A program made the translations under genes and the position numbers. Shown one piece after another: positions 4,301 through 19,650 of a stretch of DNA of 38,385 nucleotides. Each line of letters opens with the position of its first letter. Within the stretch, counting starts at the first letter, position 1. Source of the stretch: Promethearchaeota archaeon (lineage in GTDB: Archaea > Asgardarchaeota > Lokiarchaeia > Sigyniarchaeales > SOKP01); assembly GCA_048940445.1 (NCBI GenBank), contig JBHLON010000031.1, positions 1-38,385 on the forward strand, in the 5' to 3' direction. Below the pieces are notes generated by a model. It saw nothing but the letters and a program-made list of their open reading frames with translations. It was not told the DNA's origin and ran no database searches.

Positions 4301-5113
4301 TTGGCAAAAAAAAAGAAATGGCTTATAATGCCAGTAATTCATTCAAAATTCAATGATGACAAATTAGAAACAACATTGATCAACAAATCACGAGATTTAT
4401 TAACAAAAGAACAGGGTTTTGTGCCTTCATTTATATTTCTTTCCGGAAGTTTTTTTGACATTAAAGGATTTGTATATACTGGACTTCGGGCTTGGAAGGG
4501 TGCAGTTAAACCATCCGAATCGGATGAAGGAAGAAGACCATTATTAGAAGCAACTTTTGCTTCTTTATCTGTATATTTAAGCTCACTACTAGCTTTACAA
4601 TCGGATTTTTATTTTGCTTATGATGAAATTAAAGATATTTTATTAGAAAAACATCGTGAGGATCTCTGGACTATAGTATCTGAAAAATTACCCTTTATTT
4701 CATTGCCCCCAAAAGAAATGTATGGAAACCAAGTTTCTCCTATCTCCCCATATTTCGTAATAGAACAAGATGATGAATTAATTTTGGGAGAAATATACCC
4801 CTCTGCTTATTTAACTAAAGTAATCTCATCAATCAAAACAAGATTCTTTGTGTTCTTTCAATACCAAGGATATTCCGCTTTTGGATTTTTTGATTCCCTC
4901 CCTGATCGCTCTAATTTTGGATTTGAAGAAAAAGCAAGAGACTTCAATAGCGATCCTTCCTCAGAAAACCTTTTGAAATATGCCAAAAGTGCTAAAAATT
5001 TAAAAGAAGTACTAATAGCATTAATCGAAAGTCATAATAATGCTTATTTGGAACAATTTTTAATCCCAGACTATGAATTATTATTAAATAAATTATTGGA
5101 AGGTGAAGTATAA
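4301..5113 (+). CDS. hypothetical protein, translationally coupled to downstream GTPase
   Basis: 270-aa ORF with a GGAG upstream of the TTG. Its stop overlaps the next start (TAATG). Confidence 0.75.
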   Translation: MAKKKKWLIMPVIHSKFNDDKLETTLINKSRDLLTKEQGFVPSFIFLSGSFFDIKGFVYTGLRAWKGAVKPSESDEGRRPLLEATFASLSVYLSSLLALQSDFYFAYDEIKDILLEKHREDLWTIVSEKLPFISLPPKEMYGNQVSPISPYFVIEQDDELILGEIYPSAYLTKVISSIKTRFFVFFQYQGYSAFGFFDSLPDRSNFGFEEKARDFNSDPSSENLLKYAKSAKNLKEVLIALIESHNNAYLEQFLIPDYELLLNKLLEGEV

Positions 5114-5748
5114 TGGTGAATATTGGATTACTTGGCGATATAAGTGTTGGTAAAACTTCTATTTTGCGGTTATTCGTTAGATATCTTAATCGAGGGGACA
5201 TTGAAAATGTTGAAGGTGGATTGAAGGCTTCAGTTGTAAAAACTGATTTCTCAGGTGAGGCGACTGTACCCAGAGGAGATAAGGTAGATTCTCTTGATGA
5301 AAAAGAAACTAAAACCATTCATCCCAACAGAGTAGTGTTTCGAGAAGATGCCTCTGGCAAGGCTCACACGATCTTTGCCCCAGGTGGTGACCGTAGTCGC
5401 GCTGTTGTGAAGATGGGGATCATTACAATCTCCCGTATAGCCACACAGATTATAGCAGTTTTCTCTTTAGATAGAGACGTAGATAGACAATTTGAATTCT
5501 TTAATGATGTTAGATTTTTCCCTGAAAAAATTTATGTTTGTATAAACAAGGTTGACTTATTAAAAGGAGACAAGGAAAAAGAAATTGAGAAATTAAAAAA
5601 GAAGATTAATGATTTTTTCACAAAGAGGAAGATAACGGTACAAGATATCTTTGTTACATGTGGAGAGACAGTTGATAATTTTGATGATGTTGAAAAGTAT
5701 AATGATCGTGTGGCAGAAATGATTCTTAGAATCACTACTTCCCATTAA
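5113..5748 (+). CDS. small Ras-superfamily/MglA-like GTPase with non-canonical G3
   Basis: G1 GDISVGKT and G4 NKVD are present. The G3 position reads FAPGG instead of DxxG. Confidence 0.8.
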   Translation: MVNIGLLGDISVGKTSILRLFVRYLNRGDIENVEGGLKASVVKTDFSGEATVPRGDKVDSLDEKETKTIHPNRVVFREDASGKAHTIFAPGGDRSRAVVKMGIITISRIATQIIAVFSLDRDVDRQFEFFNDVRFFPEKIYVCINKVDLLKGDKEKEIEKLKKKINDFFTKRKITVQDIFVTCGETVDNFDDVEKYNDRVAEMILRITTSH

Positions 5749-6304: not shown

Positions 6305-6961
6305 TCATATATATAAACTATTGGTTTCTTTTTGATATTTTATCTTACCTAATTGAAGTAGATGTAGCAAATATACAAAATCTTCAAATATTTCCATTTG
6401 ATCTTTATCTATCTCGAAAATATCTTCAAATCTGCATGGCAATTTCCCCTTGATTCTTTCAAGATAAAGAAACATTTTCTCAGTAAAGTTTTGGCGAGTA
6501 ATTTCTAATAAAAATTCGGAATTTATTTTCTGACGCTTTAAGTGCTCGACTTCAATTATTTTATTTCTTTCTTTGGAAAATTTCTTATCAGACTCTACTA
6601 AAAAATTAATGGAAATCGATTCAATAGTAAATACTCTTCTACAACAAGCATCAAATAATAAAGAAATATCTTGATCACTTGGCTTTAACTCTAAAAAATT
6701 AAAGAAGAGCTTGTCATTTTCTAGAAGTTTTAGAAAGGACTTTAATTCCTCAAATTTTTGGTTTAAAAGGAAACATGCTTCTTTATATAAGGATGAATAT
6801 TTATCAATATTTTCCATATTAAGCGAATCTTTAAGATCTTGAAAAATAGGATTAAGTTCAAAACTTAACAGACTTAATTTTCCTGATAATATTTTGCTTT
6901 TTACGTTTTCGATCTTTTGGCTTATTTGATTGTAATAATCTGTAAAATTAATCATGATCAT
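6305..6961 (-). CDS. kleisin (ScpA/Nse4-like)
   Basis: N-terminal helical ACFLLNQKFEEL and C-terminal winged helix FEDIF...FVYLLHLLQLGKIKYQ. ATGA overlap with the SMC stop codon. Confidence 0.75.
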   Translation of the reverse strand: MIMINFTDYYNQISQKIENVKSKILSGKLSLLSFELNPIFQDLKDSLNMENIDKYSSLYKEACFLLNQKFEELKSFLKLLENDKLFFNFLELKPSDQDISLLFDACCRRVFTIESISINFLVESDKKFSKERNKIIEVEHLKRQKINSEFLLEITRQNFTEKMFLYLERIKGKLPCRFEDIFEIDKDQMEIFEDFVYLLHLLQLGKIKYQKETNSLYI

Positions 6962-9900
6962 TTTTCTTTTAAAATTTTTGGTTTAAAAATTGTAGAAACC
7001 TCTTTTCTACCTATCCTGGCCACACCAATTAATTTATCAGCTAATAAATATAAGTTAGTCGATGATTTGGGTAGAAACATAAGCAATTGTACTGGATTTT
7101 TTTCTAGTGTAGCTTTTATCATTTGATAGGACGCTTCTGAATTCTTATCATCTAAAAACATGCCAGCCTCATCAAACATACAAAGTGGTGAGGGTTTAAT
7201 TTCCTGCAGTGAGAGAATTAGGCAAATTGAAATCATAGAGATTTGCCCTCCACTAAGAGCCTTAAAAGACTTTAATTGCTCTTTTGTAGTTGCTGCCTTA
7301 ATTTCTATCCCTAAATCTTCAAAAGAGCCGACTAAATTAAGGGAACAAAAGGACTTTATATTAGCTGATTCGAATTTTTGGTTAATCTTTAATTCTAAAT
7401 CATTTAAAGTTGTTCTAAATTTTTCAAAATAAGTATCTTCAAGCTTAGTTTCAGTCTTAATAGCCGATTTGATATCTTTTTCTAAGCTTTTTTGATGTTT
7501 TGCAATCTCTTTCATACTAGATATTATTTGTTCCTTTTCAATTAAAATTGAATCATCCACATCTAAATATTTTAACAATTTTTTGTCTAATCTTAAAATA
7601 TCTTCTTTAATATCAGCAATAGGGCGTATTTTAATCTCTTCATTTAATACGGCACTACTTATCTCAGAATTTATTCTCTCTAAATCTTTTTCATGAGATG
7701 ATAATTCTTGTTCGAGTGTAGTCTTCTTTAAAAATTCTTGTTCTATTTTTATTTTAATATCTATATGATCCTTTTCAATATCTGATTTTTCATGTTCAAT
7801 CTCTAGCTTTTGCTTCCTTAATTTTGAGATATCAGCTTCTCTCTCATCTATATCATCCTCAATTGATTCTAAGTTCTTATATATTTCAAAGGCCTTTTTA
7901 TCTGAGCTTTGAAATCTTTCCTTCTTCGCTTCATAATCTTGTTTTAAAATTTTTAATTTTTCTTTTTGTTGTGTGAGTTTTTCATTGACTTCCTGTATTT
8001 GTTGCATATTCATATTCAATTTCGTATCCCATTTTTTTAAATCTTCATTGTAGAAATGTAACTCATCTGGTATCTCCTCAATTCTATCGTTTAATTTAAA
8101 AATTTCTGGATCCCTCTGAGACTCTGAGCTCTGAATCTGTCTTTCTGTGTCAGATATTTCATTTTGGAGTTTGTTTATATCAGTTTCAAGATTATGCACA
8201 AGATCATAGAGATGATTCTTTTTAGAGGTTAATCTTTGCTTTTGATTAAAGTTATACAATAAATCATTAAATGCTTCCTTTTTCTCGTATAGATCTTTCT
8301 GATTTTGTTCAATTGCAGAATATTTAACTTTTAAGTCAGAAATTCTTTTATTTATAGATTCGATCTCAGATTCTAATCTAGTGAGTTCTTCTTTTAGCGT
8401 ACTAACGCTAAGTAAACCCTTTAAATGTTTTTGAAAAGGGGTTTCATAGACGTAATTATAAGAGATTAACTGTTCACCTTTTAAAGTCACACATTTTCCC
8501 CTAAAATTTTGCTTCTTATAGATCTGGATAGCTGAATAGTAGTCCTCAACAACTAAACAATTTCTTACTTTAGAGTATATTACTTTTTGAATATCTATAT
8601 CATTGTTGACTACTCTTATTAACTCTGCTAGATAACCAATAACGTTATCAGCAGAAAATTCAGGTAAAGGGCGAATATCAAGCTTTTTAGATATATAAAT
8701 ATTACAGTACGCATTATATTTGTTCTTTATTTTGTTCAATAGATTTAAGGTATCCCAATCATTAACAACGAAACTAAATAATAATTTTTCTCCCAAAACA
8801 GATTCAATTGCGTAACTTAGTTTATCATCATATTGCAAAAATTCAATTATAGGGCCCTTAACTTTGTCAGATAATTCTCTTCTTTCAATTTCTTCTTTTA
8901 ATATATTAATACTAGTTGGAAATATTACTTTTCGTTCTCTTAAGGAAACTTGTAGTTTTTTAAAATTTTCTAATAGATTGGTTCTCTTAAACTGCAAATT
9001 ACTCAATTTTTTCCCTAATTCGAAAAGGTCTTTGGAATAGTTTTTTATTCTCTCATCAATGTCAAAAAGTAAATCTGAAGTAGGATTATCGAGAAACCAT
9101 TTATTTTTTTCCAATTTGTGTTCAATATCTTTGAAACTTTGGAAAATTTCATTGATTTCTGAATTGATCTCCTTTATCTTTATTTCATTCTCTTCAATCT
9201 TATTATTATAAGCTCCTTTCTTAGAAATTAAATTACGATATTCTCTTAAAAAATCTTCATTTTGTTTTAATTTCTTCCCCAGTCTATTTTGTTCTTCTAT
9301 TAACTCATCAATCTTTTCCTTCAGAGAAAGAATCTCCTTCTGAATTAGATTTATCTCATCATCTAATTTTTTACTATGACTTTCGGTGTTTTCAAAAGCT
9401 TTTTCAGAATTTATAATTTTTAGATTTAAATTATCTAATTCCTTTTTCGCTAATATTTTTTCTTTTTCCCAAATTTGAATTTTTTCAATTAGACTTTTTT
9501 TCTTATATGTTAATTGACCTAAATCTTTTGATAATACGTTAATATTTTCTTCTATCTCATTTAGCTTTGCTTTTTTTTCTAAAAGAGCAGTCTCGTATGC
9601 TTCAGATATTTTTTTAATGTCATTGATGGATATTTGCTGATCTTTTATTTTTTCTTTCAAATAAATTATGTTCTCTTCTAACTTTTGCCTATTTGCAAAT
9701 AATAATTCATCTGTAAAACTTTCCTTTTTTTCAATAAGCTTATGTTTTTCTTCTAATCGCTGGATTTTAGGTTGTAAAAGATTCAGATTAACGTTTAGGG
9801 TATTTTGCCGGCTTAATATGGATTGAAATTCTTGATTTAAATTAAGAATTCCTCTTTTTTGAAGTAAAATTTCATCTCTAAGCCCTTTCAGTCCAATCCC

Positions 9901-10389
9901 TTCTTCTAAGAATGCACAAAGTTCGATCGGTTTTAGATTTTTAATCACATCAATTTTTCCTTGACTTACAAAAGCAAATTGATTATCAGGATTTATCCCT
10001 AGGTTAGAAATTATCTCTTGTATATAATTTGCATGAACTCTATTAAAACTATTGTCAGTAGTTCTTTCTATCTCAAAGTAAGGAGAGTGAGCCCTCACTA
10101 CAATTCTTCTTATCTTAATTATTTCTTCATTTTTTTGTATATGAACTTCAACCATCGCATGATCTTGCCCATTCCTAATAAAATCAGACCATCTTTTATA
10201 TCTTTCATCCCTTTCATTACTTCCAAGAGCAAATTTGACTGCTTGAAATATTGATGTTTTTCCTGACCAATTTGGTCCAATTATAATCACAAATTTTGAA
10301 TCCTCGAATTTTACTTCATCTCTTTGAAAACTCAAAAAATTTTCCAGAATAACTTTTTTTAAATAAATCCTTTCAGTTTCAGTAGAAAT
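6958..10389 (-). CDS. smc: SMC ATPase, Smc5/6-like (about 1143 aa, probable ATT start)
   Basis: IYLKKVILENFLSF N-terminal strand upstream of the ORF-track start, Walker A GPNWSGKT, Q-loop FVSQG, long coiled coils, hinge VKGPIIEFL...AIESVLG, signature LSGGQ, Walker B/D-loop FDEAGMFLD. Confidence 0.92.
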   Translation of the reverse strand: MSTETERIYLKKVILENFLSFQRDEVKFEDSKFVIIIGPNWSGKTSIFQAVKFALGSNERDERYKRWSDFIRNGQDHAMVEVHIQKNEEIIKIRRIVVRAHSPYFEIERTTDNSFNRVHANYIQEIISNLGINPDNQFAFVSQGKIDVIKNLKPIELCAFLEEGIGLKGLRDEILLQKRGILNLNQEFQSILSRQNTLNVNLNLLQPKIQRLEEKHKLIEKKESFTDELLFANRQKLEENIIYLKEKIKDQQISINDIKKISEAYETALLEKKAKLNEIEENINVLSKDLGQLTYKKKSLIEKIQIWEKEKILAKKELDNLNLKIINSEKAFENTESHSKKLDDEINLIQKEILSLKEKIDELIEEQNRLGKKLKQNEDFLREYRNLISKKGAYNNKIEENEIKIKEINSEINEIFQSFKDIEHKLEKNKWFLDNPTSDLLFDIDERIKNYSKDLFELGKKLSNLQFKRTNLLENFKKLQVSLRERKVIFPTSINILKEEIERRELSDKVKGPIIEFLQYDDKLSYAIESVLGEKLLFSFVVNDWDTLNLLNKIKNKYNAYCNIYISKKLDIRPLPEFSADNVIGYLAELIRVVNNDIDIQKVIYSKVRNCLVVEDYYSAIQIYKKQNFRGKCVTLKGEQLISYNYVYETPFQKHLKGLLSVSTLKEELTRLESEIESINKRISDLKVKYSAIEQNQKDLYEKKEAFNDLLYNFNQKQRLTSKKNHLYDLVHNLETDINKLQNEISDTERQIQSSESQRDPEIFKLNDRIEEIPDELHFYNEDLKKWDTKLNMNMQQIQEVNEKLTQQKEKLKILKQDYEAKKERFQSSDKKAFEIYKNLESIEDDIDEREADISKLRKQKLEIEHEKSDIEKDHIDIKIKIEQEFLKKTTLEQELSSHEKDLERINSEISSAVLNEEIKIRPIADIKEDILRLDKKLLKYLDVDDSILIEKEQIISSMKEIAKHQKSLEKDIKSAIKTETKLEDTYFEKFRTTLNDLELKINQKFESANIKSFCSLNLVGSFEDLGIEIKAATTKEQLKSFKALSGGQISMISICLILSLQEIKPSPLCMFDEAGMFLDDKNSEASYQMIKATLEKNPVQLLMFLPKSSTNLYLLADKLIGVARIGRKEVSTIFKPKILKEK

Positions 10390-10397
10390 CTTGGTAA

Positions 10398-10403
10398 CCT
10401 CCT
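10398..10403 (-). promoter_or_regulatory. Shine-Dalgarno AGGAGG, 8 nt upstream of the ATT codon opening the SMC frame
   Basis: Minus strand reads AAAAGGAGGTTACCAAG-ATT-TCT-ACT. Confidence 0.7.
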
Positions 10404-10408
10404 TTTAT

Positions 10409-11656
10409 TTATCTCCCAAAGCTCTGTCTTATGTGGTCAATTTTCTTTTTTGCTTTTTCTAAATGAATTTGGGCTCTATTTGGAGAATTATTTAAAATAA
10501 AAGGATAATTTGCTAGTAATTTTCTTTCATTCTCTTCAAGAATCTCATTTTTATTTAATTTATCAATAATTATGACTAGCTCTGTATAATTCTTAGAAGC
10601 CGCATTTTCATACAATTGGCTTAGCATAAATTCAGAAATAGGTTGATCCTGAATCTCACTCACAATTGACTGTAACTTGGTAAAAGCTAACTCTTTGTCT
10701 TTAAAATGCTTTTCTGTAGCTAGTGATTCCCGATCTAAATCCTCAAACTCATCTCGAAATCTCGGATCCTTATAATAAATTGATGGTTTGAATTCCCCTG
10801 AATCGATTAAGTTGGTAATAACATCTGTTATTTCATTAGATGTTTTATTTAGCTCAAAATTAAGAAAATGCTTAAAAATAGCTAACTTAATAAGGTTCTT
10901 AATGTCTAAAATTTCCCAATCTCTAGTATAATTGATTAGTGTACTTATATCAAAAACAATCTTTGGCTTTCCTTCGGAATAATTCCTTAAAAACACCTCT
11001 CTCTCTTTAATACCTATAGGGGGAACTCTAAGGACTAAATCAAAGATCTGGTAAACATTATATGAATTTTCCCTTATATCATTAAAATTTTCATTTAACC
11101 ACACTAAAATGCTTCCATTTTTTAAATATTCAGAATTATACCTTTTTTGAAAAGTTAAAAAGACTTTAAGCAAATTTCTCCCCTTAAATAAATTAGCTGG
11201 TAATTCGCTTTGATTTATTAATATCAATCTGTTTAATTTTACTTTCTCAAAATTTTCAGGATATGTTTTAGACTCATTCTGAACTCTTTCTTTATGTTGG
11301 GTTATGTTCAACATGTTTTGAAAGATTAAATTAAAATTGTTTAAAAATTCTGATGGTGATCTTAATATTTCAAAATAATCTAACTCTATAAAATCTAAAT
11401 AGTAGTTTTTTGATATTAATCTCAAAAAGTTAGAAATGTCTGTACCTGGGGAAATATTAACTAGAAGTAAACCATTTGGCTCAAAATATGGCTGAATTTC
11501 TGAATATTCATCACTGGTTAACAAAACCTTAAAATAATTCATAATATCATTATACTTCTCCCGAAGAAAAATATCTTCTTTCTCAACTTTAATATTCGAA
11601 GGCAGGATTATCCGATAATAACTAATCTTTTTTAGTTCATTTTCAGAGTTTTTCAT
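10409..11656 (-). CDS. degenerate (probably inactive) AAA+ ATPase-like protein
   Basis: PNGLLLVNISPGTD sits at the Walker A position without GKT. FDLVLRVPPIGIKEREVFL...DISTLINYTRDWEILDIKNLIKLA resembles the classic AAA lid (FD..I.vplP....R..IL...TeG.sgaDi..L...A). Confidence 0.6.
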   Translation of the reverse strand: MKNSENELKKISYYRIILPSNIKVEKEDIFLREKYNDIMNYFKVLLTSDEYSEIQPYFEPNGLLLVNISPGTDISNFLRLISKNYYLDFIELDYFEILRSPSEFLNNFNLIFQNMLNITQHKERVQNESKTYPENFEKVKLNRLILINQSELPANLFKGRNLLKVFLTFQKRYNSEYLKNGSILVWLNENFNDIRENSYNVYQIFDLVLRVPPIGIKEREVFLRNYSEGKPKIVFDISTLINYTRDWEILDIKNLIKLAIFKHFLNFELNKTSNEITDVITNLIDSGEFKPSIYYKDPRFRDEFEDLDRESLATEKHFKDKELAFTKLQSIVSEIQDQPISEFMLSQLYENAASKNYTELVIIIDKLNKNEILEENERKLLANYPFILNNSPNRAQIHLEKAKKKIDHIRQSFGR

Positions 11657-11773: not shown

Positions 11774-12178
11774 TTATTCAAAATGATATTCACGATAAAA
11801 ATTCATTAATTGCTCTTTAAATTCATTTTCTAAAAGACTATAATATGTAAATTTTCCTTTTTTCCACCCACGAATTAGATTGGCTTTTTCTAACTCTCTT
11901 AGATGATGAGATATTGAAGGTTGAGACTTATCCAAAATAACTTCTAATTCACATACACAACGATCTTTTTCTTTTAATGCATTAATAATAGTTAATCGTT
12001 CCCTATTTCCTAAAGCATTTAAGAATGTTAATATAGAAGATGTTTTATCATCTAACTTTAAATTTTCTCCTAATTCTTGTAAATTATTAAAAATTTTTTC
12101 ACTATCAGGACATTCTTCACAGCTACATAGCATTTCTTTGATTTCTGTTTTGCGATCGACTTTGATAAAAATCACCAA
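11774..12178 (-). CDS. arsR: ArsR/SmtB metalloregulatory repressor
   Basis: ALGNRERLTII, RCVCELEVIL-DKSQPSISHHLRELEKANLI, KKGKFTYYSL, plus extra N-terminal CSCEEC. Divergent from the acr3 operon. The exact start is uncertain (12178/12175/12166/12133). Confidence 0.92.
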   Translation of the reverse strand: MVIFIKVDRKTEIKEMLCSCEECPDSEKIFNNLQELGENLKLDDKTSSILTFLNALGNRERLTIINALKEKDRCVCELEVILDKSQPSISHHLRELEKANLIRGWKKGKFTYYSLLENEFKEQLMNFYREYHFE

Positions 12179-12244
12179 AAAAGTCTTATTATTATTTATA
12201 AATAAAACATTAAATTATAAAAATTTTATCCAAATTGAAGAACC

Positions 12245-12258
12245 TCGATTCACATCGA
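12245..12258. promoter_or_regulatory. inverted repeat TCGAT-N4-ATCGA in the arsR/operon divergent promoter, candidate ArsR operator
   Basis: Perfect 5-bp inverted repeat next to a TTTTTAT TATA-like element. It is short, so a chance match is possible. Confidence 0.3.
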
Positions 12259-12323
12259 AACCTTTTTATTTGAATAACTCTATTTATATCTTAAGCTCTA
12301 ACCATAAATGAATAAAGTAAAAT

Positions 12324-13067
12324 ATGAAAAAAAAAGTAAAGTTGACGGTTGGAGTGGTTTCTGATGGAAAATATGGGGATAGAGCCTATGAAAACATCAA
12401 AACTAAGTTTGAAACTAAATGGATACTCGTTCCAGAAATACCATCAAATGTTATGTTAGATGATTTGGTTGATCTAAACGTCCCTGAATGCGACCTTTAT
12501 ATTTCATACGTTCGTCATCCTGACATTATAATTCAACTTGTAGAACTCCAAAAGCCAATAATATTAGGAGTACTTCCTGGAATTGGTCTATATATACAAG
12601 CTAGAAAAGTCAATCCTAATGTTATTTATGCTCCTACGATGTGTTCTTTGGAACATAACACTGGCATTCCTGAGGTTGATTCCTTTACTACATATTTTGG
12701 CCGTCCTATTTATCAATTCAATTTAAATGAGAAGGGAGTAATTAACAAAATTGATATCCAACGATCATCTTTATGTGGATCTTCTAAGGCTGGAGCAGAA
12801 TTTCTCTCAAATAAAATTTTTGAAGAAAATACTCTTCAAAATTTCGCATTAAAGGTCTGTTATGAATGCCGGGCTCCACGTTTTGGTCATACATGTGATA
12901 AAGAAGTAGCTGGGCTTATTCATCTCGTTGCACTCTTTAATAGTATTTCACCTGAAGTTTTCAATAAACTTACTGATAATTTAAAAGCCTTCATTAAAGA
13001 CATAAGAAAAGAATATGAAAGAAGAACTGAAAATTCAAATATTATCTTAAAAGAGGTTGTTCGATAA
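12324..13067 (+). CDS. DUF166 family Cys-containing protein
   Basis: GKYGDRA, HPD, MCSL, FGRP, RSSLCGS, YECRA and AGLIH pattern typical of archaeal DUF166. Confidence 0.75.
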   Translation: MKKKVKLTVGVVSDGKYGDRAYENIKTKFETKWILVPEIPSNVMLDDLVDLNVPECDLYISYVRHPDIIIQLVELQKPIILGVLPGIGLYIQARKVNPNVIYAPTMCSLEHNTGIPEVDSFTTYFGRPIYQFNLNEKGVINKIDIQRSSLCGSSKAGAEFLSNKIFEENTLQNFALKVCYECRAPRFGHTCDKEVAGLIHLVALFNSISPEVFNKLTDNLKAFIKDIRKEYERRTENSNIILKEVVR

Positions 13068-13070
13068 ATT

Positions 13071-14129
13071 ATGCAAGAAGAAAAATTCGATCAAATAGAA
13101 GAAATCGTAGAAGAGAAAGGGAAAAGTATTGGGTTTTTCGAGAAGTTACTTCCATTATGGGTTGCATTATGCATTCTTATTGGGATTGTTATATCTCAGA
13201 TTATTCCTGGAATAAGTATCATAATTGATTCTTTAAAAATTGGTGAGATTTCAATACCAATCGGGATTTGTTTGTTTTTAATGATGTATCCTGCTATGTT
13301 AAATCTTCAAACATCGGAATTAAAGAAATTGGGAAAAAAACCGAAACCTATTATTTTAACTCTGATATCTAATTGGTTAATTGCCCCTTTCATAGGTCTT
13401 GCGATGGTAAAATTGTTTTTATCAGGAAATGAAGAACTTTCAGTTGCTGTCATATTACTTTCAAGTTCTCCATGTACTGCAATGGTTCTTGTATGGGGGT
13501 GGATGGCTCGAGGAAATCAAGAACAAAATGTTATTAATACTAGTTTGAATACAATAACAATAATATTTGGGTATGCTCCGATGGTTACATTATTGACTGG
13601 TATTCAGAATATTCCAATCAATTGGATACTTTTGTTATTGTCAACATTGGTTTTTATTGGACTCCCTTTATTATTGGGAATTATAACTAAAAGAATTATA
13701 ATTTCTTCTAAAGGACCAGATTGGTTCAATAAAACATATCGACCGTTAGTAGGAAAAATTTCTATTTTAGCGTTATTAACTACCTTGGTTGTCCTCTTTT
13801 CTTTGAATGGAACTGTTTTGATACAGAATCCTGATCTACTGTTATTAGTAAGTATTCCCCTTTTGGTTGGATTTGCTATTGTAGTAGGATATAACATTCT
13901 AATAACTAAATTTTTTAAACTAAAATATAAAGAGGCAGTTATAACTGTAATTATTGGATCCTCGAGTCATTTTGAAATTGCAATTGCTACTGCTATCGCA
14001 ATATACGGGGTGGGTTCAATTGCCGCATTAGGTACTACAATGGGCTTATTCTGGGAAGTACCAGTGATGTTATCAATCGTATATTTAGGCCGATATTTAA
14101 GAAAAAGAGGATTTTGGAAATCTGAATAG
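13071..14129 (+). CDS. acr3: ACR3-family arsenite efflux transporter
   Basis: FFEKLLPLWVALCI, SIPIGICLFLMMYP, SNWLIAPF, PCTAMVLVW, SSHFEIAIATAI and EVPVML motifs; about 10 TM helices. Confidence 0.95.
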   Translation: MQEEKFDQIEEIVEEKGKSIGFFEKLLPLWVALCILIGIVISQIIPGISIIIDSLKIGEISIPIGICLFLMMYPAMLNLQTSELKKLGKKPKPIILTLISNWLIAPFIGLAMVKLFLSGNEELSVAVILLSSSPCTAMVLVWGWMARGNQEQNVINTSLNTITIIFGYAPMVTLLTGIQNIPINWILLLLSTLVFIGLPLLLGIITKRIIISSKGPDWFNKTYRPLVGKISILALLTTLVVLFSLNGTVLIQNPDLLLLVSIPLLVGFAIVVGYNILITKFFKLKYKEAVITVIIGSSSHFEIAIATAIAIYGVGSIAALGTTMGLFWEVPVMLSIVYLGRYLRKRGFWKSE

Positions 14130-14171
14130 GATTATTTTATTATAAAATACAAGAAAAAAGGTATATATGTA

Positions 14172-15836
14172 ATGGCTGTTGTATATATGCGTAAATTGGA
14201 ACAAGAACCTGAAAGTTATGATTCAAAATTTACAATTCTTACAAAGGGAGTAAATATTGAAGTTCAAAATTGGGTTCTTGATCATATAAATACTGTAGAA
14301 ACAGTTTTAGAGATTGGATGTGGTACTGGTGCACTTGCCTCTAAAATAGCATTAAAGGGTAACGATGTTGTTGCGATTGATAAAGATTTTAAGATGATTA
14401 CGTATGCTATGCAGAATTATCCTCAAGAAGAAAATTTAAAACTCAAATATCAAATTGGATCTTTTTCAGATATGCCCATTGAAGATTCCTCTAAAGATGT
14501 AGTTGTGAGTACTTTTATGTTATCAGAATTGCGTCCATTTGAACAACAAATTTTTCTTCGAAATGTATGGAAAGTACTGAAACCAGAAGGGCGTTTAATT
14601 ATTGGAGCTGAATTTTTACCTTCAGGATTTTGGAGACTAATATTTAATATTAAAAGATGGTGGTATAAGAAAAAAATTAGAAGACTTCGATTGAAAAGCA
14701 CTTTCCGCGTTAAATGGTTCTTTAATTATTTACAGCAAATAGGATTTAAATTTAATACTCAAAAAAAGTGGAAACATGGGTCCATCCAAGCACTGGTACT
14801 ACAAAAGATAAATATCAATCAGAATAATGAACCCGGCTATTATCGCCCTAAACCAAAAAAATTCAAAGGAATTCAGTCTCAATTACGGATTTTTCGATGT
14901 ATCTTTACTGGTCAAGTTGATCATGTTCCTATTGAACCTGGAATATATGAATCTGGTACTCCTGATGAAAATTCCCCGATTATCGTAACTGCAAATTATG
15001 ACTATACCTACATTAAAGTAATGCGAGACTTGAAAAGGATCAATGCATGGGTATTATGTGTAGATTCTGATGGAATTAATGTGTGGTGTGCAGCTCGCGG
15101 AAATAATTTCGGAAATTCCCAAATCCTTGAGGCGGTAGGAGCATCTGGAATTCAGTATATTTCTAATAAAAAGACTTTATTGCTTCCTCAACTTTCTGCA
15201 GGGGGAGTCGCTATTCCAGAATTACCAATAAATTCTGATAAATTCCCATTTAAAGTTAAATATGGTCCTGTGTGGTCCAAATTTATCCCCGATTATTTAA
15301 AAGAAAAACCCTCTAAGAAATCAGATAAAATCAAGCTTGCTAAATTTACCACATCTCAACGTATCCGTGCTGGAATTACTCATACTACATTTCTCTTTCG
15401 AAAAGTGTTTCTTTTACCCATTGTTGTTTTACTAATACTATTTTTGGGCTTAACAATCTTTACAAATTTTGATAAGTTATGGTGGATTGGCGAAGTTTGC
15501 CTTTGGATAGTTCTCACTAATGTAATTCTATTTTCCTTGTTTCCTCTTTCAAAATTTACTCAGAGGTTTATAATTAAGGGAATTTTCTATGGATTTATTA
15601 ATATTGTCATTCTAGGTGCACTAACATGGTGGCTACATAATTCAATCTTTTATACGTTAATTAATCTGGGATTTTTCTTCTGGATTGCTTTCTTTTCAAC
15701 AATGTCTTTTAGCGGTTACACGATGGCAACAAGTCCACGAAAAATTGAAAATGAATATCCCCTGTTTAATATTTTAAATAAAATATTTTTAGTAATAAGT
15801 TTAATTTCACTAACAATTGGAGTCATATTTGTTTAA
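14172..15836 (+). CDS. fusion: class I SAM methyltransferase + HgcA-like (CdhD-family) corrinoid-binding domain + TM domain
   Basis: LEIGCGTG and VLKPEGRL methyltransferase motifs. EPGIY..G.PDENSPIIVTANY, DSDGINVWCAARG (cap-helix Cys306), LLLPQLSAGGV and YGPV motifs. 4-5 TM helices ending FSGYTMATS. Confidence 0.88.
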   Translation: MAVVYMRKLEQEPESYDSKFTILTKGVNIEVQNWVLDHINTVETVLEIGCGTGALASKIALKGNDVVAIDKDFKMITYAMQNYPQEENLKLKYQIGSFSDMPIEDSSKDVVVSTFMLSELRPFEQQIFLRNVWKVLKPEGRLIIGAEFLPSGFWRLIFNIKRWWYKKKIRRLRLKSTFRVKWFFNYLQQIGFKFNTQKKWKHGSIQALVLQKININQNNEPGYYRPKPKKFKGIQSQLRIFRCIFTGQVDHVPIEPGIYESGTPDENSPIIVTANYDYTYIKVMRDLKRINAWVLCVDSDGINVWCAARGNNFGNSQILEAVGASGIQYISNKKTLLLPQLSAGGVAIPELPINSDKFPFKVKYGPVWSKFIPDYLKEKPSKKSDKIKLAKFTTSQRIRAGITHTTFLFRKVFLLPIVVLLILFLGLTIFTNFDKLWWIGEVCLWIVLTNVILFSLFPLSKFTQRFIIKGIFYGFINIVILGALTWWLHNSIFYTLINLGFFFWIAFFSTMSFSGYTMATSPRKIENEYPLFNILNKIFLVISLISLTIGVIFV

Positions 15837-15872
15837 ATAATATAAAAAATTAATAAAATTGAAGATTAGGAG

Positions 15873-16187
15873 GTGTTATATATAACAGAAATAGATTTTA
15901 AATCATTAAATATAACAGAAATCGTAAAGGATTTGCGTATCTTTATCAATAAAGATCTCTGTAATGGTTGTGGGTTGTGCGGAGAGATTTGTCCTTTTGG
16001 ATTACCAAAACCAATTGAAGATGGAAAGTATGAAATATCAAATGCTAATCTCTGTACAGAATGTAGTGCGTGTAAAAGAAATTGCCCCACAAAGGCTATT
16101 ATCATGCAAGAACAACCTGGATGTGGATGTTTATGGAATGTTAGAAGTAGAGTAAAAAATTCTAATCAATCTTGTAATTGTTCTTAA
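15873..16187 (+). CDS. 2x[4Fe-4S] ferredoxin, HgcB-like
   Basis: CNGCGLCGEICP and CTECSACKRNCP, then PGCGC and C-terminal CNC. Directly downstream of the hgcA-like gene. The true start may be ATA at 15882. Confidence 0.88.
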   Translation: MLYITEIDFKSLNITEIVKDLRIFINKDLCNGCGLCGEICPFGLPKPIEDGKYEISNANLCTECSACKRNCPTKAIIMQEQPGCGCLWNVRSRVKNSNQSCNCS

Positions 16188-16205
16188 AATCAAGTGGTTT
16201 AAGTC

Positions 16206-16478
16206 ATGGAAAAAAATAATAAGTTAAACGTGGATATTTATGTGCCTCTAGATAGCTGTGCTTGCGAATGGGACAAGTTTATGAATCGTGTATTCGTAGT
16301 CTTGACACCCTATATTAAGCATATTAATTACAATACAAAAAATCTTAATTCTGAAGAAGCTCGAAGCCTAAATTTACATGGAAACTCTATTGTTATAGAA
16401 AATGAAAAAAAGTATACGGCTGTATTTTCATTAGAAAGAGAATTGCCTGCTCTGCTTAAAGAAAAAGGTTTGATTTAA
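16206..16478 (+). CDS. small thioredoxin-fold-like protein with CxC motif (ArsD-like metallochaperone candidate)
   Basis: VDIYVPLDSCACEW near the N-terminus of a 90-aa ORF within the operon. Fold assignment is by eye. Confidence 0.55.
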   Translation: MEKNNKLNVDIYVPLDSCACEWDKFMNRVFVVLTPYIKHINYNTKNLNSEEARSLNLHGNSIVIENEKKYTAVFSLERELPALLKEKGLI

Positions 16479-16515
16479 GTATTATCATAAGACTGGTGAA
16501 TTAAAGATTAAAAAC

Positions 16516-16863
16516 GTGGAATTTGAAATTAGTATTCCAATTAAAGGATTACAACGGGGTAAAAAATATTCTCTTGAAATCGAAGATAATACTACATTTA
16601 TAGAAGCTTTAGCATTGGTTGATAAAATTGAGATGGGAGATTCCATTAATTCGATATTTCCATTGTATGATAGTCACATTCATAGCTACCTTCAATTATT
16701 TGTAAATATAGATGAGGGTTCATTATATGGTGATGTTGGAATATTTGCATATGCACCTGATGATAATGGAGCTATGCGTAAATTTAACCCAATCAGAAAT
16801 AATATAGAATTCAACATATATCCTGACAGTTTTATTCAATTACAACCGGATGTAGGATGTTGA
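16516..16863 (+). CDS. ubiquitin/MoaD-like beta-grasp protein ending in Gly-Cys
   Basis: Strand-strand-helix opening (EFEISIP..KYSLEIEDNTTFIEALALVD) and C-terminal YPDSFIQLQPDVGC, paralleling the MoaD ending l.dgD.v.i.Ppv.GG. Confidence 0.55.
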   Translation: MEFEISIPIKGLQRGKKYSLEIEDNTTFIEALALVDKIEMGDSINSIFPLYDSHIHSYLQLFVNIDEGSLYGDVGIFAYAPDDNGAMRKFNPIRNNIEFNIYPDSFIQLQPDVGC

Positions 16864-17120
16864 TGAGAGAAAGTAAAAGAAAGATTAGACATGGGAGCTT
16901 TGAAGGCAATTATTCTTAAAAAATACGGCAAGGAGAATAAATATTTTACCCATTATTTTCAAAAACTATGATTTGGATGATATCTTTTAAAAAAATTTAG
17001 TAAAAGGTTGACAAAGGGATTGTATCCTCTATTTTTTATACTACGTATTTAAATTGATCTCCTTTTTTTTTAAAATCTGAAACTTAAAGAATAATACCTT
17101 ATTTAAATTTTCGAGTACTA

Positions 17121-18089
17121 ATGGATATTTTTACACATTTTTTAATGGCAATATTCATAAGTATCTATACTCTTTACTTCCTGCCTTTTAGTATTGTTCT
17201 TTATGCTGTGATATTGGCTGTAATTCCCGATTTTGATATTATTTTGGAACCATTACGGCGGATTAAAAAATCTAACTTTTTGTCTCATAAAGGACTTTCC
17301 CATTCTTTATTTTCGGCTTTTGCTTTTTCATTTATTACCACAATTATATTTACTATTATAACTAAGGAAGATTTTTTTATTGCATGGATTATGGGATTTC
17401 TTTTTTACAGTCTACATATTTTGCTCGATTTTGTGGCAGCATCAAAAATACCTATTTTTTATCCCTTCTCAAAAAAGAGATATCGATTTTTCATTGATAG
17501 GGCAATAAATTTCCCTTTAGCTTTAGTCTCCGGTCTTATTCTTTTATTTTATACATTAATCTTCTTCTTTTTACCACAACTTTTCTTTTCAAATCTGTAT
17601 AACTATTTTTTTGGATTTTATATAACATATTTCTCATATCGTATTGTTTCTAAAATATGGATTCAAACTAGATTACCTCCCAGTGCTCTCTACATCCCTG
17701 GTGTTATTCCCTTCACCTATTTAATCTATGAAAAAATTAATACAGAAAATTCAGATACTTTTCGATTAAAAAAAAAAATTCAATTCATGAAAAAAAATCA
17801 TATTATTTTTGAATCGAAGTTGTTGAAAACACCTGAAGATTTGAAATTTTATGATAAAGCAATAGACCTCGCAAAAGATTATGTATTTTTTACTAAGTGG
17901 GTAGCAATAATACCAGTTATAAAAAAAAGTAATGACCAATGTACTGTGATTCTAATTCTTGCAGAAAGTTATTTTCGGAAATCAGTTTATGGGCTAAAAG
18001 TGATTTTTAATAGAAGATCAGAACTAGTTGAGCAAATTTCCGAAGGGTTTAATATATTTAGACTCCTTTCAAATTTCACTATTTCATAA
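17121..18089 (+). CDS. membrane-bound metal-dependent hydrolase (YdjM-like)
   Basis: MDIFTH, IPDFD, HKGLSHS, LHILLD and IPIFYPFS motifs plus TM helices. Confidence 0.88.
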   Translation: MDIFTHFLMAIFISIYTLYFLPFSIVLYAVILAVIPDFDIILEPLRRIKKSNFLSHKGLSHSLFSAFAFSFITTIIFTIITKEDFFIAWIMGFLFYSLHILLDFVAASKIPIFYPFSKKRYRFFIDRAINFPLALVSGLILLFYTLIFFFLPQLFFSNLYNYFFGFYITYFSYRIVSKIWIQTRLPPSALYIPGVIPFTYLIYEKINTENSDTFRLKKKIQFMKKNHIIFESKLLKTPEDLKFYDKAIDLAKDYVFFTKWVAIIPVIKKSNDQCTVILILAESYFRKSVYGLKVIFNRRSELVEQISEGFNIFRLLSNFTIS

Positions 18090-18246
18090 TTAGATTCTAA
18101 AATTTAATTACGCTCGTAAACACTTTTCGTGAAAAAATCCGAGTCTAATAATAAATATTTAAATATATGTTTATCTGAAATAGTAATTGTCAAATCTAAT
18201 ATATATATAAAAATTTTTCAATAACATTTTAATAAGTGATTAAAAT

Positions 18247-19650
18247 ATGGAACGAAACACGAAAAGAATTATAGCTATAGTCGCCATCTTAGTTATCGCT
18301 GGGGCGGGTATTGGTGTTGGAGTTTGGTTTTTGTTAACTCCACCAGCATCAGTATACGTAACACCCGGAGTTTCAGGCATTCCAGATAATCGAATAATTA
18401 AAGTTGGATTACTTGGAGGCATTACCGATATACAAGGAAAAGGAAATTATGAAGGTGCTTGGCTTGCGGCTTATAATATAAATACAGCTGGTGGAGTCCA
18501 AGTTAACGGTACAACTTATTATATAGGACTTGTATCTGAAGATACAGATGAATCAAATCCTGTCCTTGATGTCACAAAAGGAGTCTCCGCTGCAGAAAAA
18601 ATTCTTGCAGTAGATGGAGCGCAGTATATCGTTGGAGGATTTAGAACAGAAGCTTTAAAAGCCTATTTAGAAGTTGTTATGGATGCTAAAAAGTTATTTC
18701 TTGGAACTGGAGCATCAACAGACTATTTCTGTTATAATGTTTACGGAGCAGCCTATTCTAGTTACAGTAGATATAAATATTGGTTTAGAGTTATGCCTAT
18801 TAATTCAACTTCATTAGGGAGTGAGACTATTAGAGAAATATTATATCTCGCAGGATATATGAGTGATCCCCTTGTACTGAACAAAACTATACATAAGGTG
18901 GCAATTATTCGAGAAGCTTTAGACTGGACCATTCCTATGGATACTGCACTTAATGACGTTCTTCCATTATATGGATTTACTATCACAAATGACATTGCAT
19001 ATCCAATTACAGCTACAGCAACTGATTTTGCTACTTATTGGAATCAAATCGAAGCTGCCGGCGCCCAAATAACAATTCCTATTATCTCTGCTCAAGGGGG
19101 AATTTACATGATGACCCAATATGCTGCTCTCCACCCACAATGTCTTATAGCAGGTATCGATGTTCAATCACAATTAGATACATTCTGGGGCGATACTACC
19201 GGAGATTGTGCATATGAAATCATAATGCAGTCAGTTCTTAGAACAAATAAATCAGCCCTAACTGTAGCCTTCTGGGATGATTTTGTGGCTACATATAATC
19301 ATGAACCACTGTATACTGCTGTAGGAGCTTATGATGCTGTGAATTTAATAGCTGAGGCTATTAACGCTACTGGAAGTTTTAGGACTCAAGAAATAATACC
19401 CTATATTGAAAGCTTTACTAAAGCTAGTCCACAGGCTGGAGCTAGCGTTACAGCACCATATTCAGCTTGGAACAAAGCTCATGATGTGTCAGAGGGGTAT
19501 CCATATGGTTTTACTTTATTCTGCCAATGGAAACCAGATAGTACAAAAGATTGTATATCTGCACCCCTTGTTTACCCAGATGTCGGGTTATACGGGAACA
19601 TAGTAACTGGAGGTATAGCACTCCCTCCTTGGGGTATTAATGACCCCTAA
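18247..19650 (+). CDS. livK: branched-chain amino acid-type ABC transporter substrate-binding protein
   Basis: N-terminal TM anchor, IKVGLLG, INTAGGVQV, GGFRTE, YWFRVMP and AYDAV motifs; heads the livHMGF cluster. Confidence 0.88.
   Translation: MERNTKRIIAIVAILVIAGAGIGVGVWFLLTPPASVYVTPGVSGIPDNRIIKVGLLGGITDIQGKGNYEGAWLAAYNINTAGGVQVNGTTYYIGLVSEDTDESNPVLDVTKGVSAAEKILAVDGAQYIVGGFRTEALKAYLEVVMDAKKLFLGTGASTDYFCYNVYGAAYSSYSRYKYWFRVMPINSTSLGSETIREILYLAGYMSDPLVLNKTIHKVAIIREALDWTIPMDTALNDVLPLYGFTITNDIAYPITATATDFATYWNQIEAAGAQITIPIISAQGGIYMMTQYAALHPQCLIAGIDVQSQLDTFWGDTTGDCAYEIIMQSVLRTNKSALTVAFWDDFVATYNHEPLYTAVGAYDAVNLIAEAINATGSFRTQEIIPYIESFTKASPQAGASVTAPYSAWNKAHDVSEGYPYGFTLFCQWKPDSTKDCISAPLVYPDVGLYGNIVTGGIALPPWGINDP

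Follow-up and report, generated by a model that had tools for sequence, protein, structure and literature searches.

A putative ArsR-controlled metalloid operon of a Promethearchaeota archaeon combines an Acr3-CxC-selenoprotein core with a methyltransferase::HgcA-like fusion

Contig JBHLON010000031.1 of the Promethearchaeota archaeon assembly GCA_048940445.1 carries, within the 38,385-nucleotide (nt) stretch analysed here and called the window, a compact cluster in which an arsR gene on the minus strand faces six genes on the plus strand. The source genome is a 3.64-Mb metagenome-assembled genome (MAG), 93% complete and labelled G000 in our locus names. Gene coordinates and families were taken from an open reading frame (ORF) listing and from Pfam/NCBIfam scans of the window proteins, and small proteins described as having no family match had none at E ≤ 0.01 in these two collections. 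Downstream of the divergent promoter region lie genes for a DUF166 protein, an Acr3-family permease, a CpaM-like methyltransferase::HgcA-like fusion (gene 4), an HgcB-like ferredoxin, a small CxC protein and a putative selenoprotein (gene 7), separated by 3, 42, 36, 18 and 37 nt. The divergent arsR and six co-oriented genes with gaps of 3-42 bp, as described in the original prediction, were thus reproduced, and the clusters of Cys residues it had reported hold for ArsR, DUF166, the HgcB-like ferredoxin, the CxC protein and gene 7. Its end of the feature, position 16863, proved wrong: 16861-16863 is the first of two in-frame TGA codons and the unit reaches ~17070. The G+C content lies between 26 and 35% across the window and the composition is unbroken at the cluster. 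We lean, with modest confidence, towards a metalloid-detoxification operon under ArsR-type control made of two modules, an ars core and a methylation module built on an HgcAB paralogue.

The regulator (11774..12178, minus strand) belongs to the ArsR/SmtB family of metalloregulators (PF01022, E 9.5e-15). It scores 75.3 bits against NF033788, above the cut-off of 55, and the Cys residues of the metal site are present, in a CSCEEC motif at the N-terminus and, within the DNA-binding region, in a CVCEL motif. Eight orthologues keep both of these motifs together with the N-terminal extension. An alignment of 10 intergenic regions highlighted, within the divergent promoter region (12179..12323), an element at 12245-12259 that resembles a palindrome and has a half-copy at 12229-12240. 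The element lies between two TATA-like boxes, at ~12211-12226 for arsR and ~12288-12298 for the operon, and we regard it as a candidate ArsR operator, a function predicted from its sequence. An exact copy of its 13-nt core occurs once in the window, and allowing at most one mismatch yields 3 matches against 0.24 expected. The exact core is confined to the closer relatives L012, L018, L019 and L022 and was absent from the more distant arsR loci compared.

The operon exporter (13071..14129, plus strand) is a divergent paralogue of the Acr3-family arsenite efflux permeases, matching TIGR00832 over its full length with 276.9 bits for a cut-off of 282.8. It is 32% identical to the canonical Acr3 of the same genome and retains the Cys (PCTAMV) and Glu (HFEIA) motifs, which align with those of canonical Acr3. 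Its identity reaches 77-82% with the Acr3 of ArsR-Acr3-CxC-selenoprotein loci in related genomes.

Gene 4 (14172..15836, plus strand; NF043040, NF040863, NF043039, PF03599) codes for a 554-residue protein joining a CpaM-like class I S-adenosylmethionine (SAM) methyltransferase (residues ~1-215), an HgcA-like corrinoid-binding domain (residues ~237-400) and, according to a simple hydropathy scan, five transmembrane segments (residues 412-552), as in the five-transmembrane C-terminal domain of HgcA. The cap helix, NVWCAARG, is found at residues 303-310 (nt 15078-15101) and contains Cys306; the motif N-V-W-C-A-A-R-G is invariant in 31 relatives, Cys at the Co-ligand position included. Residues 3-211 score 144.3 bits against CpaM (NF043040, cut-off 180), and residues ~252-544 score 161.1 bits against HgcA (NF040863, cut-off 275) and 165.7 bits against the HgcAB-like fusion family (NF043039, cut-off 285), each below membership. 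The CpaM, HgcA, HgcAB-like and HgcB matches of the pair are all clear yet under their cut-offs, and CpaM together with the HgcAB-like family are the best-scoring named relatives. Homologues of the fusion were found in more than 120 Asgard clusters at an identity of at least 62%. [quoted passage not shown] The only Cys within residues 1-236 sits in the SAM motif. True HgcAB takes its methyl group from SAM (PMC11588087), and the presence of a SAM methyltransferase domain in the fusion agrees with the chemistry of the superfamily.

Directly behind the fusion gene lies a gene for an HgcB-like 2x[4Fe-4S] ferredoxin (15873..16187, plus strand; Fer4; NF040864, 53.6 bits for a cut-off of 99) in which both Fe-S motifs are present, together with GCGC and, at the C-terminus, a CNC tail. 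A methyltransferase, a corrinoid protein and a ferredoxin are thus encoded together, the combination that characterises CpaM/HgcAB-like systems. We compared a first set of 28 species-level Asgard loci holding the fusion, the named relatives being Asgard MAGs labelled Promethearchaeota, Hodarchaeota, Hermodarchaeota and similar, with 20 distant loci from other Asgard families. The HgcB-like gene directly follows the fusion gene in 25/25 loci of the first set that reach past its 3' end and in 20/20 distant ones (45/45). Window positions 15843-15884 contain a AGGAGGTG ribosome-binding site followed by 6 nt and then ATT, where the orthologues start with M-T-E-I-D-F; the HgcB-like gene may consequently start at this ATT Ile codon.

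Two side observations concern the fusion gene. Several genomes of the window family contain a second full-length match to the fusion (~29-30% identity) broken by 1-3 TAA/TAG codons, at G083:C53:18946-20454, G008:C11:17981-19477, G168:C10:233-1732 and G171:C23:30966-32480, which may represent a decaying paralogue. A CpaM-like match at the start of contig C102 was rejected, the genes there coding for an unrelated methyltransferase and an ATP-grasp protein.

A HMMER search with the HgcA-like domain recovered 943 representatives, the best 150 of which were sorted by architecture and cap helix; the proteins serving as HgcA references were inferred from their motif and architecture within this representative library. 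A word-based search with the same domain reached only Asgard fragments. Among the best 150 of the 943, standalone proteins of 300-400 residues nearly all carry NVWCAAGKG, Asgard methyltransferase fusions carry NVWCAARG, and other non-GK variants are seen in proteins that end in an HgcB part. Compared with the HgcA motif N(V/I)WC(A/S)(A/G)GK, the Cys of the window fusion is present and ARG replaces GK. A FastTree phylogeny of 139 domains was rooted on the CdhD-type protein of the same genome, a single long outgroup, and provides local support only; it is used here solely to place the fusion outside the GK clade. GK proteins form one clade (support 99), GK being carried by 102 of the 107 standalone-HgcA representatives, and the window fusion falls outside it, among the ten members of another clade (support 97). 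Several non-GK clades include methyltransferase fusions, and one of these clades lies beside the HgcA-HgcB fusions. Lin et al. placed Asgard sequences in a fused-HgcAB clade and trimmed 327 poorly aligned N-terminal columns (PMC10083202), which may correspond to the fused methyltransferase domain.

These comparisons bear on whether the pair could be a functional mercury methylase, equivalent to true HgcAB, in an operon responding to mercury or to several metals. Such an explanation would account for the retention of the Cys-bearing NVWC cap helix, of the five transmembrane helices and of the HgcB-like Cys tail, and ArsR sites with at least four Cys can sense Hg or Cd. Yet the scores lie far under the cut-offs (161 vs 275 bits for HgcA, 54 vs 99 for HgcB), the cap helix reads ARG where all but 5 of the 107 rows of the standalone-HgcA clade read (A/G)GK, and the fusion belongs to a separate, well-supported clade. 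Furthermore, P. furiosus fused HgcAB, the sole member of the paralogue group to have been tested, does not methylate Hg (PMC10083202), the exporter of the operon is Acr3, and no mer gene was found within the cluster in the Pfam/NCBIfam scans. We consider a mercury methylase very unlikely.

The sixth gene (16206..16478, plus strand) codes for a 90-residue CxC protein for which Pfam and NCBIfam returned no match at E ≤ 0.01. Its AlphaFold model (predicted local distance difference test, pLDDT, 87.7) adopts a beta-alpha-beta-alpha-beta-beta-alpha topology, and the top Foldseek matches are all thioredoxin or glutaredoxin, which identifies a thioredoxin-fold protein. An invariant C-A-C opens helix 1, a position reminiscent of ArsD, and some orthologues bear N-terminal tails rich in CC and CCG. 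The protein is not assigned to ArsD, given the lack of a family match at that threshold and a CxC profile that draws nothing in the PDB. Separately, distant CxC matches of family f19 (L047-type) contain one in-frame TGA each (G047:C94:12638-12859, G070:C56:7149-7364, G064:C234:2226-2441) and may be selenocysteine-containing members of the CxC family.

Gene 7 had originally been described as "Ubl-GC", a 115-residue ubiquitin-like (Ubl) protein ending in GC. This end is wrong. The frame (16516..16971, plus strand) runs through a double TGA at 16861-16866 to the terminator TGA at 16969-16971, and the in-frame TGA TGA, the frame open to 16971 and a downstream selenocysteine insertion sequence (SECIS)-like element together point to a protein of ~151 residues containing Cys-Sec-Sec (C-U-U), Sec (U) being selenocysteine. 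Its product would consist of a beta-grasp-like N-domain, the Cys-Sec-Sec motif and a conserved basic tail of 34 residues ending in HYF. The double TGA and the tail, followed by a real stop, are kept in 16/16 homologues of the first set of loci, in which two motif subtypes occur, one with C-U-U and the other with U-G-U-U or D-U-U. Substitutions per site at codon positions 1/2/3 amount to 0.26/0.09/0.43 in the tail and 0.22/0.11/0.43 in the 31 codons upstream of the TGAs, an alike pattern, and the other two reading frames of the tail region are full of stops. In database copies of gene 7, the protein either stops at the TGA or, where TGA is decoded as Trp, continues through it as WW. None of 27 database relatives recovered by a limited, word-based search, two of them being WW, has Cys in place of Sec. 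A weak point of the Sec reading is that the terminator of gene 7 in the window is itself TGA. As for the "Ubl" label, it finds weak support at the level of the fold, the N-domain model (pLDDT 67.5) having SAMP1 (E 0.013, template modelling score 0.49-0.60) and Urm1 as its best folds; the GC terminus did not stand, and the chain, devoid of a Gly-Gly end, continues with C-U-U and 34 residues. Gene 7 has no Pfam/NCBIfam match at E ≤ 0.01 and no relevant PDB sequence match.

The SECIS core of the eukaryote/Loki type (16975..17013, plus strand) comprises AUGA, a 7-bp helix, an A-rich apical loop and GA(C). All 7 core helix pairs form in 15/15 sequences, compensatory changes are seen at 3 pairs, and RNAalifold recovers the same helix unaided. 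The 14-pair structure is 90% paired, a proportion that falls to ≤58% when the partners are slid, and a search of this region against Rfam gave no match at E ≤ 10. This layout agrees with the Lokiarchaeial SECIS consensus, an AUGA_GA core with an AAAAA loop (Huang 2024, PMC11227280). A family-specific covariance model built on the gene-7 SECIS core, R1, detects only two sites in the source genome, one in the window (58.5 bits) and one after a second gene of the family on contig C44. In 20 loci outside model building, R1 produced 20 hits at E ≤ 1e-5, 17 of which lie 100-180 nt past a gene-7 homologue on the correct strand, compared to 0 in five loci without such a gene. The genome also encodes SepSecS (482 bits vs a cut-off of 225) and SelD with Sec at the canonical site. 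The 3' untranslated region (3'UTR) of selD has the SECIS layout found at gene 7; this comparison was made by eye because R1 is family-specific, and R1 does not detect the SelD SECIS. Seven Asgard selenoprotein families have been found by homology to known ones (PMC11227280), and the gene-7 family is not among them. Gene 7 probably represents a new selenoprotein family characterised by Cys-Sec-Sec or Sec-Gly-Sec-Sec.

The second selenoprotein-family gene of the genome, on C44 (C44:27291-27815; L078:1015-1539), is predicted to encode a 157-residue HAD-U-U-AD subtype with a SECIS of 47.6 bits; it is located between the opposite-strand gene of a Cys-rich protein and a flavodoxin-like gene, away from ars genes. 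Two of the strongest R1 hits elsewhere, L085:4018-4056 (-) and L088:8971-9009 (+), both at ~66 bits, have no recognised gene-7 homologue adjacent and may mark further unannotated selenoprotein genes. A further R1 hit, L087:4615-4654 (-), lies just downstream of a 223-residue ORF (4712-5383).

The SECIS is followed by a second small conserved hairpin and T-runs (17014..17071, plus strand), the hairpin occupying 17014-17030 with covarying pairs 46-60 and 45-61. In the intergenic DNA of the unit, T-runs of at least 6 are found only at 17032-17037 and 17063-17071, after the SECIS and this hairpin, and none occurs in the intergenic gaps ahead of the SECIS. The transcript likely ends at 17014-17071, where the hairpin and T-runs would act as a terminator. 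The T-run pattern fits a single transcript without showing one.

Conservation of the neighbourhood, which the original prediction had put forward as its first check, is only partial. The ars-type context is found in 13-14 of the 28 loci of the first set (group A), with fusion identities of 57-84%, a recurrence of the gene order that goes beyond chance. The remaining loci (group B) retain the fusion and the ferredoxin only, with a MarR gene upstream in about half of them. In the fusion tree, group B forms a single derived clade (support 100) inside group A, which is paraphyletic; the ars context is therefore the older one in this family and was left essentially once. At a larger scale, the fusion is present in 57 of 201 sampled Asgard genomes (40 of 86 high-quality ones), with identities of 30-36% in other families. 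The CxC gene occurs in 46 and gene 7 in 38 of the 201 genomes, and 36 of these 38 belong to the family of the window, for which 40 genomes were sampled.

Eight loci from genomes in which the fusion is located elsewhere or was not found consist of ArsR facing Acr3-CxC-selenoprotein, from which we take ArsR/Acr3/CxC/selenoprotein to be the core module. In the lineage of the window, acr3 and the CxC gene are separated by the inserted methylase pair, and DUF166 lies between arsR and acr3. A distinct arrangement is displayed by L087 (G135 contig C103), from another genus, where a 369-residue ArsM::CxC fusion (L087:6444-7556, minus strand; ArsM 350 bits vs a cut-off of 263) is followed by a selenoprotein gene and a SECIS, with arsR divergent. 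The last 90 residues of this protein are a CxC domain 61% identical to the window CxC protein (E 7e-40). ArsM thus fills the slot held in the window by the HgcAB-like pair, and the CxC family is tied directly to arsenite methylation. In three loci of two other Asgard families (L093, L095, L097), canonical acr3/arsR genes are likewise found a few kb or less from CxC-like genes, and bacterial proteins in which ArsM is fused to a UU double-Sec domain have NCBIfam entries (NF041537, NF041536). ArsR is divergent from the block in every locus long enough, that is, in 7 of the 8 core loci and in L087. The sole unit that is invariant across loci is the methylase pair itself.

These genes might be neighbours by descent only, expressed as several transcripts with unrelated roles. 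The flanking SMC, AAA-like and YdjM genes are syntenic with the cluster as well, and part of the gene order could consequently reflect inheritance rather than selection. Such a passive association hardly accounts for gaps of 3-42 nt, a single orientation and the lack of intergenic T-runs ahead of the SECIS, nor for the recombination of Acr3-CxC-selenoprotein, ArsM::CxC-selenoprotein and fusion-HgcB as whole blocks or the divergent ArsR in all loci of sufficient length. We judge it the least probable of the explanations considered here, and a highly improbable one.

The metalloid scheme that we infer, from its inducer and substrate to each step of the chemistry and the role of the small proteins as carriers, would operate as follows. 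The metalloid would most likely be As(III), possibly Sb(III). The first module would consist of ArsR, the divergent Acr3 exporter, the CxC protein and the Cys-Sec-Sec selenoprotein, the latter two acting as soft-ligand metallochaperones that would bind As(III) and deliver it either to this exporter or to an enzyme that methylates it. The second module, placed between acr3 and the CxC gene, would be a paralogue of the HgcAB mercury methylase. Its CpaM-like domain would move a methyl group from SAM to cob(I)alamin in the HgcA-like domain, with Cys306 as the cap-helix ligand; the HgcB-like ferredoxin would re-reduce the cobalt, its Cys-rich tail helping to hold the substrate, and the methyl group would pass on to the bound metalloid. 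The comparative context supports, without proving, such corrinoid-dependent arsenic methylation. The more specific proposal that the HgcAB-like pair is a cobalamin-dependent As/Sb methyltransferase fed by the Cys-Sec-Sec selenoprotein and a CxC carrier is a tentative one, and we would not rely on it yet. [quoted passage not shown]

Several observations weigh against this scheme. The N-terminal Cys cluster and CVC of the ArsR site fit Cd, Pb, Zn or Hg sensing equally well. The methyltransferase domain of the fusion lacks the As-binding Cys of ArsM and scores 45 bits against ArsM NF008823 (cut-off 263). In group B and in the 20 loci from other Asgard families, the flanks fetched contain none of the acr3, DUF166, CxC and gene-7 genes; of these 20, only 3 have an ArsR-family gene upstream of the fusion. 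Being widespread without ars genes, the pair need not have arsenic as its general substrate. The genome moreover carries a canonical ArsM (C4:39769-40599, 335 bits vs a cut-off of 263), directly behind a MarR-family gene, and a canonical Acr3 (C96:42464-43453, 445 bits) without an adjacent arsR; since it has its own ArsM, the module is not needed for arsenic methylation. Finally, tRNA-Sec was not found in the 93%-complete MAG by aragorn or RF01852, a result that is no evidence of absence given that aragorn yields only 13 tRNAs in the whole MAG. Independently of these points, MarR is also the type of regulator found upstream of the fusion in group-B genomes.

Alternatively, the HgcAB-like pair might serve a non-arsenic substrate, its place in the operon being kept by descent or shared regulation and the ars function residing in ArsR, Acr3, CxC and the selenoprotein. 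Candidate substrates would be a different soft metal, a halomethane, which has been proposed for true HgcAB, or a methyl acceptor of the cell. In favour of this view, no unit other than the pair is invariant, the 20 distant loci lack ars partners within their flanks, clade B lies in a MarR context, the ars core is complete without the pair and the genome carries its own ArsM. In addition, heterologously expressed HgcAB dechlorinates CCl4 (bioRxiv 10.64898/2026.04.26.720869), and the failure of the P. furiosus fused HgcAB to methylate Hg leaves the substrate of the paralogues open (PMC10083202). Less easily reconciled with a non-arsenic substrate are the placement of the inserted pair, which separates acr3 from the CxC gene, has gaps of 18-42 nt and persists across 57-84% protein identity, the occupation of the same slot by ArsM in L087, and the ArsR-family regulators upstream of the fusion in three distant loci and of bacterial hgcAB (bioRxiv 10.1101/2022.10.17.512643). 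We consider a non-arsenic substrate a possible but doubtful explanation.

With a two-module metalloid operon as the preferred reading, the claims of the original prediction were retained in part. The corrinoid methylation route is backed by a complete SAM to corrinoid to substrate module with the cap-helix Cys kept, and weakened by the frequent occurrence of the pair without ars genes. The thiol relay fares similarly: the small Cys proteins are arsenic-linked, since they follow Acr3 where the methylase is missing and since CxC is fused to ArsM, but the relay would partly be a selenol relay. The suggestion that the module replaces ArsM is not supported in this genome, which has a canonical ArsM (335 bits), and what remains of it is that the module stands in the ArsM slot defined by L087. 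The reported lack of ArsM in the cluster itself was confirmed, the sole match being the generic methyltransferase core of gene 4 (45-49 bits vs cut-offs of at least 263); the family scans assigned none of the cluster genes to ArsC, for which no aimed search was made.

DUF166 is represented in the window by a divergent paralogue with six Cys (12324..13067, plus strand; PF02593, E 6e-31). The gene is found in 8 group-A loci, is missing from L019 and most core loci, and has ars genes 2-3 kb away in four fusion-less loci. The functional context that the operon had been expected to give DUF166 therefore amounts to a recurring ars-locus neighbourhood, with no mechanism attached. In M. maripaludis, CODH/ACS-dependent autotrophy needs DUF166 (bioRxiv 10.1101/2024.03.05.583561), and a role as helper of CFeSP-type corrinoid proteins was considered; it is unsupported, DUF166 also adjoining ars loci without the fusion. 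The other DUF166 gene of the genome is not near cdh genes, and a complex prediction of DUF166 with the fusion, made with the window sequences only, scored 0.00 and weighs neither way. This second, more canonical DUF166 (164 bits) belongs to the region C78:48001-51918 (locus L054:6002-9918), where it lies ~880 bp upstream of the gene for a heavy-metal P1B-type ATPase (TIGR01525, 566 bits). At L091:2358-5546 (-) (G168 contig C23), one of the four fusion-less loci with nearby ars genes, DUF166 comes last in an operon-like run of six co-oriented ORFs; two of the others encode an HgcB-like ferredoxin and a protein of 293 residues containing a GcvH-like domain, and the run is divergent from an arsR-CxC pair.

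On either side of the cluster, 6958-11656 and 17121-19650 contain genes for an SMC-like protein (1125 residues), an AAA-like protein (415 residues), a YdjM-family membrane protein and a substrate-binding protein. These flanking genes are syntenic with the cluster in many relatives, with 43-81% identity.

To our knowledge, mercury methylation has no known benefit, and the reason for hgcAB-type genes is a long-standing open question. The locus offers a testable substrate hypothesis, arsenic, for a large paralogue branch of HgcAB, the predicted methylase sitting in the ArsM slot of an arsenic-type operon beside putative soft-ligand partner proteins. Should the tentative proposal of a cobalamin-dependent As/Sb methyltransferase be correct, the native role of the non-GK HgcAB branch would be to methylate metalloids and not mercury, and Asgard archaea would possess arsenic chaperones based on selenium that supply Acr3 as well as the methylase. 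We know of no equivalent to this candidate pair of Acr3-linked chaperones. The gene-7 family, which annotations systematically and wrongly present as a truncated hypothetical protein, would enlarge the small set of Asgard selenoproteins. Metagenomic hgcA surveys that call Asgard sequences mercury methylators are probably counting a different enzyme.

Compared with known systems, the SECIS of gene 7 resembles the Asgard eSECIS-like elements (Mariotti 2016, as cited in PMC13188914; PMC11227280) in its AUGA...GA core, A-rich loop and 3'UTR location, and the host genome has the SepSecS and Sec-containing SelD of the Asgard selenoproteome. In contrast, gene 7 falls outside the seven reported families, would contain two Sec codons in a row (three in a paralogue) and has no Cys homologue among the 27 relatives seen. 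ArsM_AhpD_UU (NF041537) and ArsM_DUF2284_UU (NF041536) likewise tie an adjacent Sec pair genetically to an arsenic methylation enzyme, but the UU of the window would be carried by a separate beta-grasp-like protein with a basic tail and an archaeal 3'UTR SECIS, without similarity to AhpD or DUF2284. The CxC protein shares with ArsD a small thioredoxin fold, close-set Cys at the start of helix 1 and an ars operon context. Unlike ArsD, it has C-x-C instead of CC and a third Cys, shows no detected sequence similarity and has no ArsA partner.

The methylase pair shares with HgcA/HgcB of Pseudodesulfovibrio mercurii ND132 a CdhD/CFeSP-type corrinoid domain, the NVWC cap helix, a membrane domain of five helices and, as partner, a 2x[4Fe-4S] ferredoxin whose C-terminus bears additional Cys, as well as an ArsR-like regulator and ars genes as frequent neighbours. 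The window fusion clearly diverges from HgcA by ARG in place of (A/G)GK, by its position outside the HgcA clade and by its own N-terminal SAM methyltransferase, and the ferredoxin tail is GCGC...CNC whereas true HgcB ends in CC. CpaM and the HgcAB-like fusion (NF043040, NF043039) comprise the same three modules and belong to the same non-GK cap-helix group. They differ in how the modules are joined: the window joins the methyltransferase to the HgcA-like part and leaves the ferredoxin separate, whereas the named family joins HgcA to HgcB and leaves CpaM separate. Like canonical ars operons, the cluster has a divergent ArsR with CVC, an Acr3 with the catalytic Cys and Glu, and a methylating enzyme (ArsM in L087). 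Unlike them, it has no assigned ArsC, ArsA or ArsD (no search having been aimed at ArsC) and its Acr3 is divergent; its accessory proteins are the CxC protein and the putative Cys-Sec-Sec selenoprotein, and its methylase is predicted to be corrinoid-dependent.

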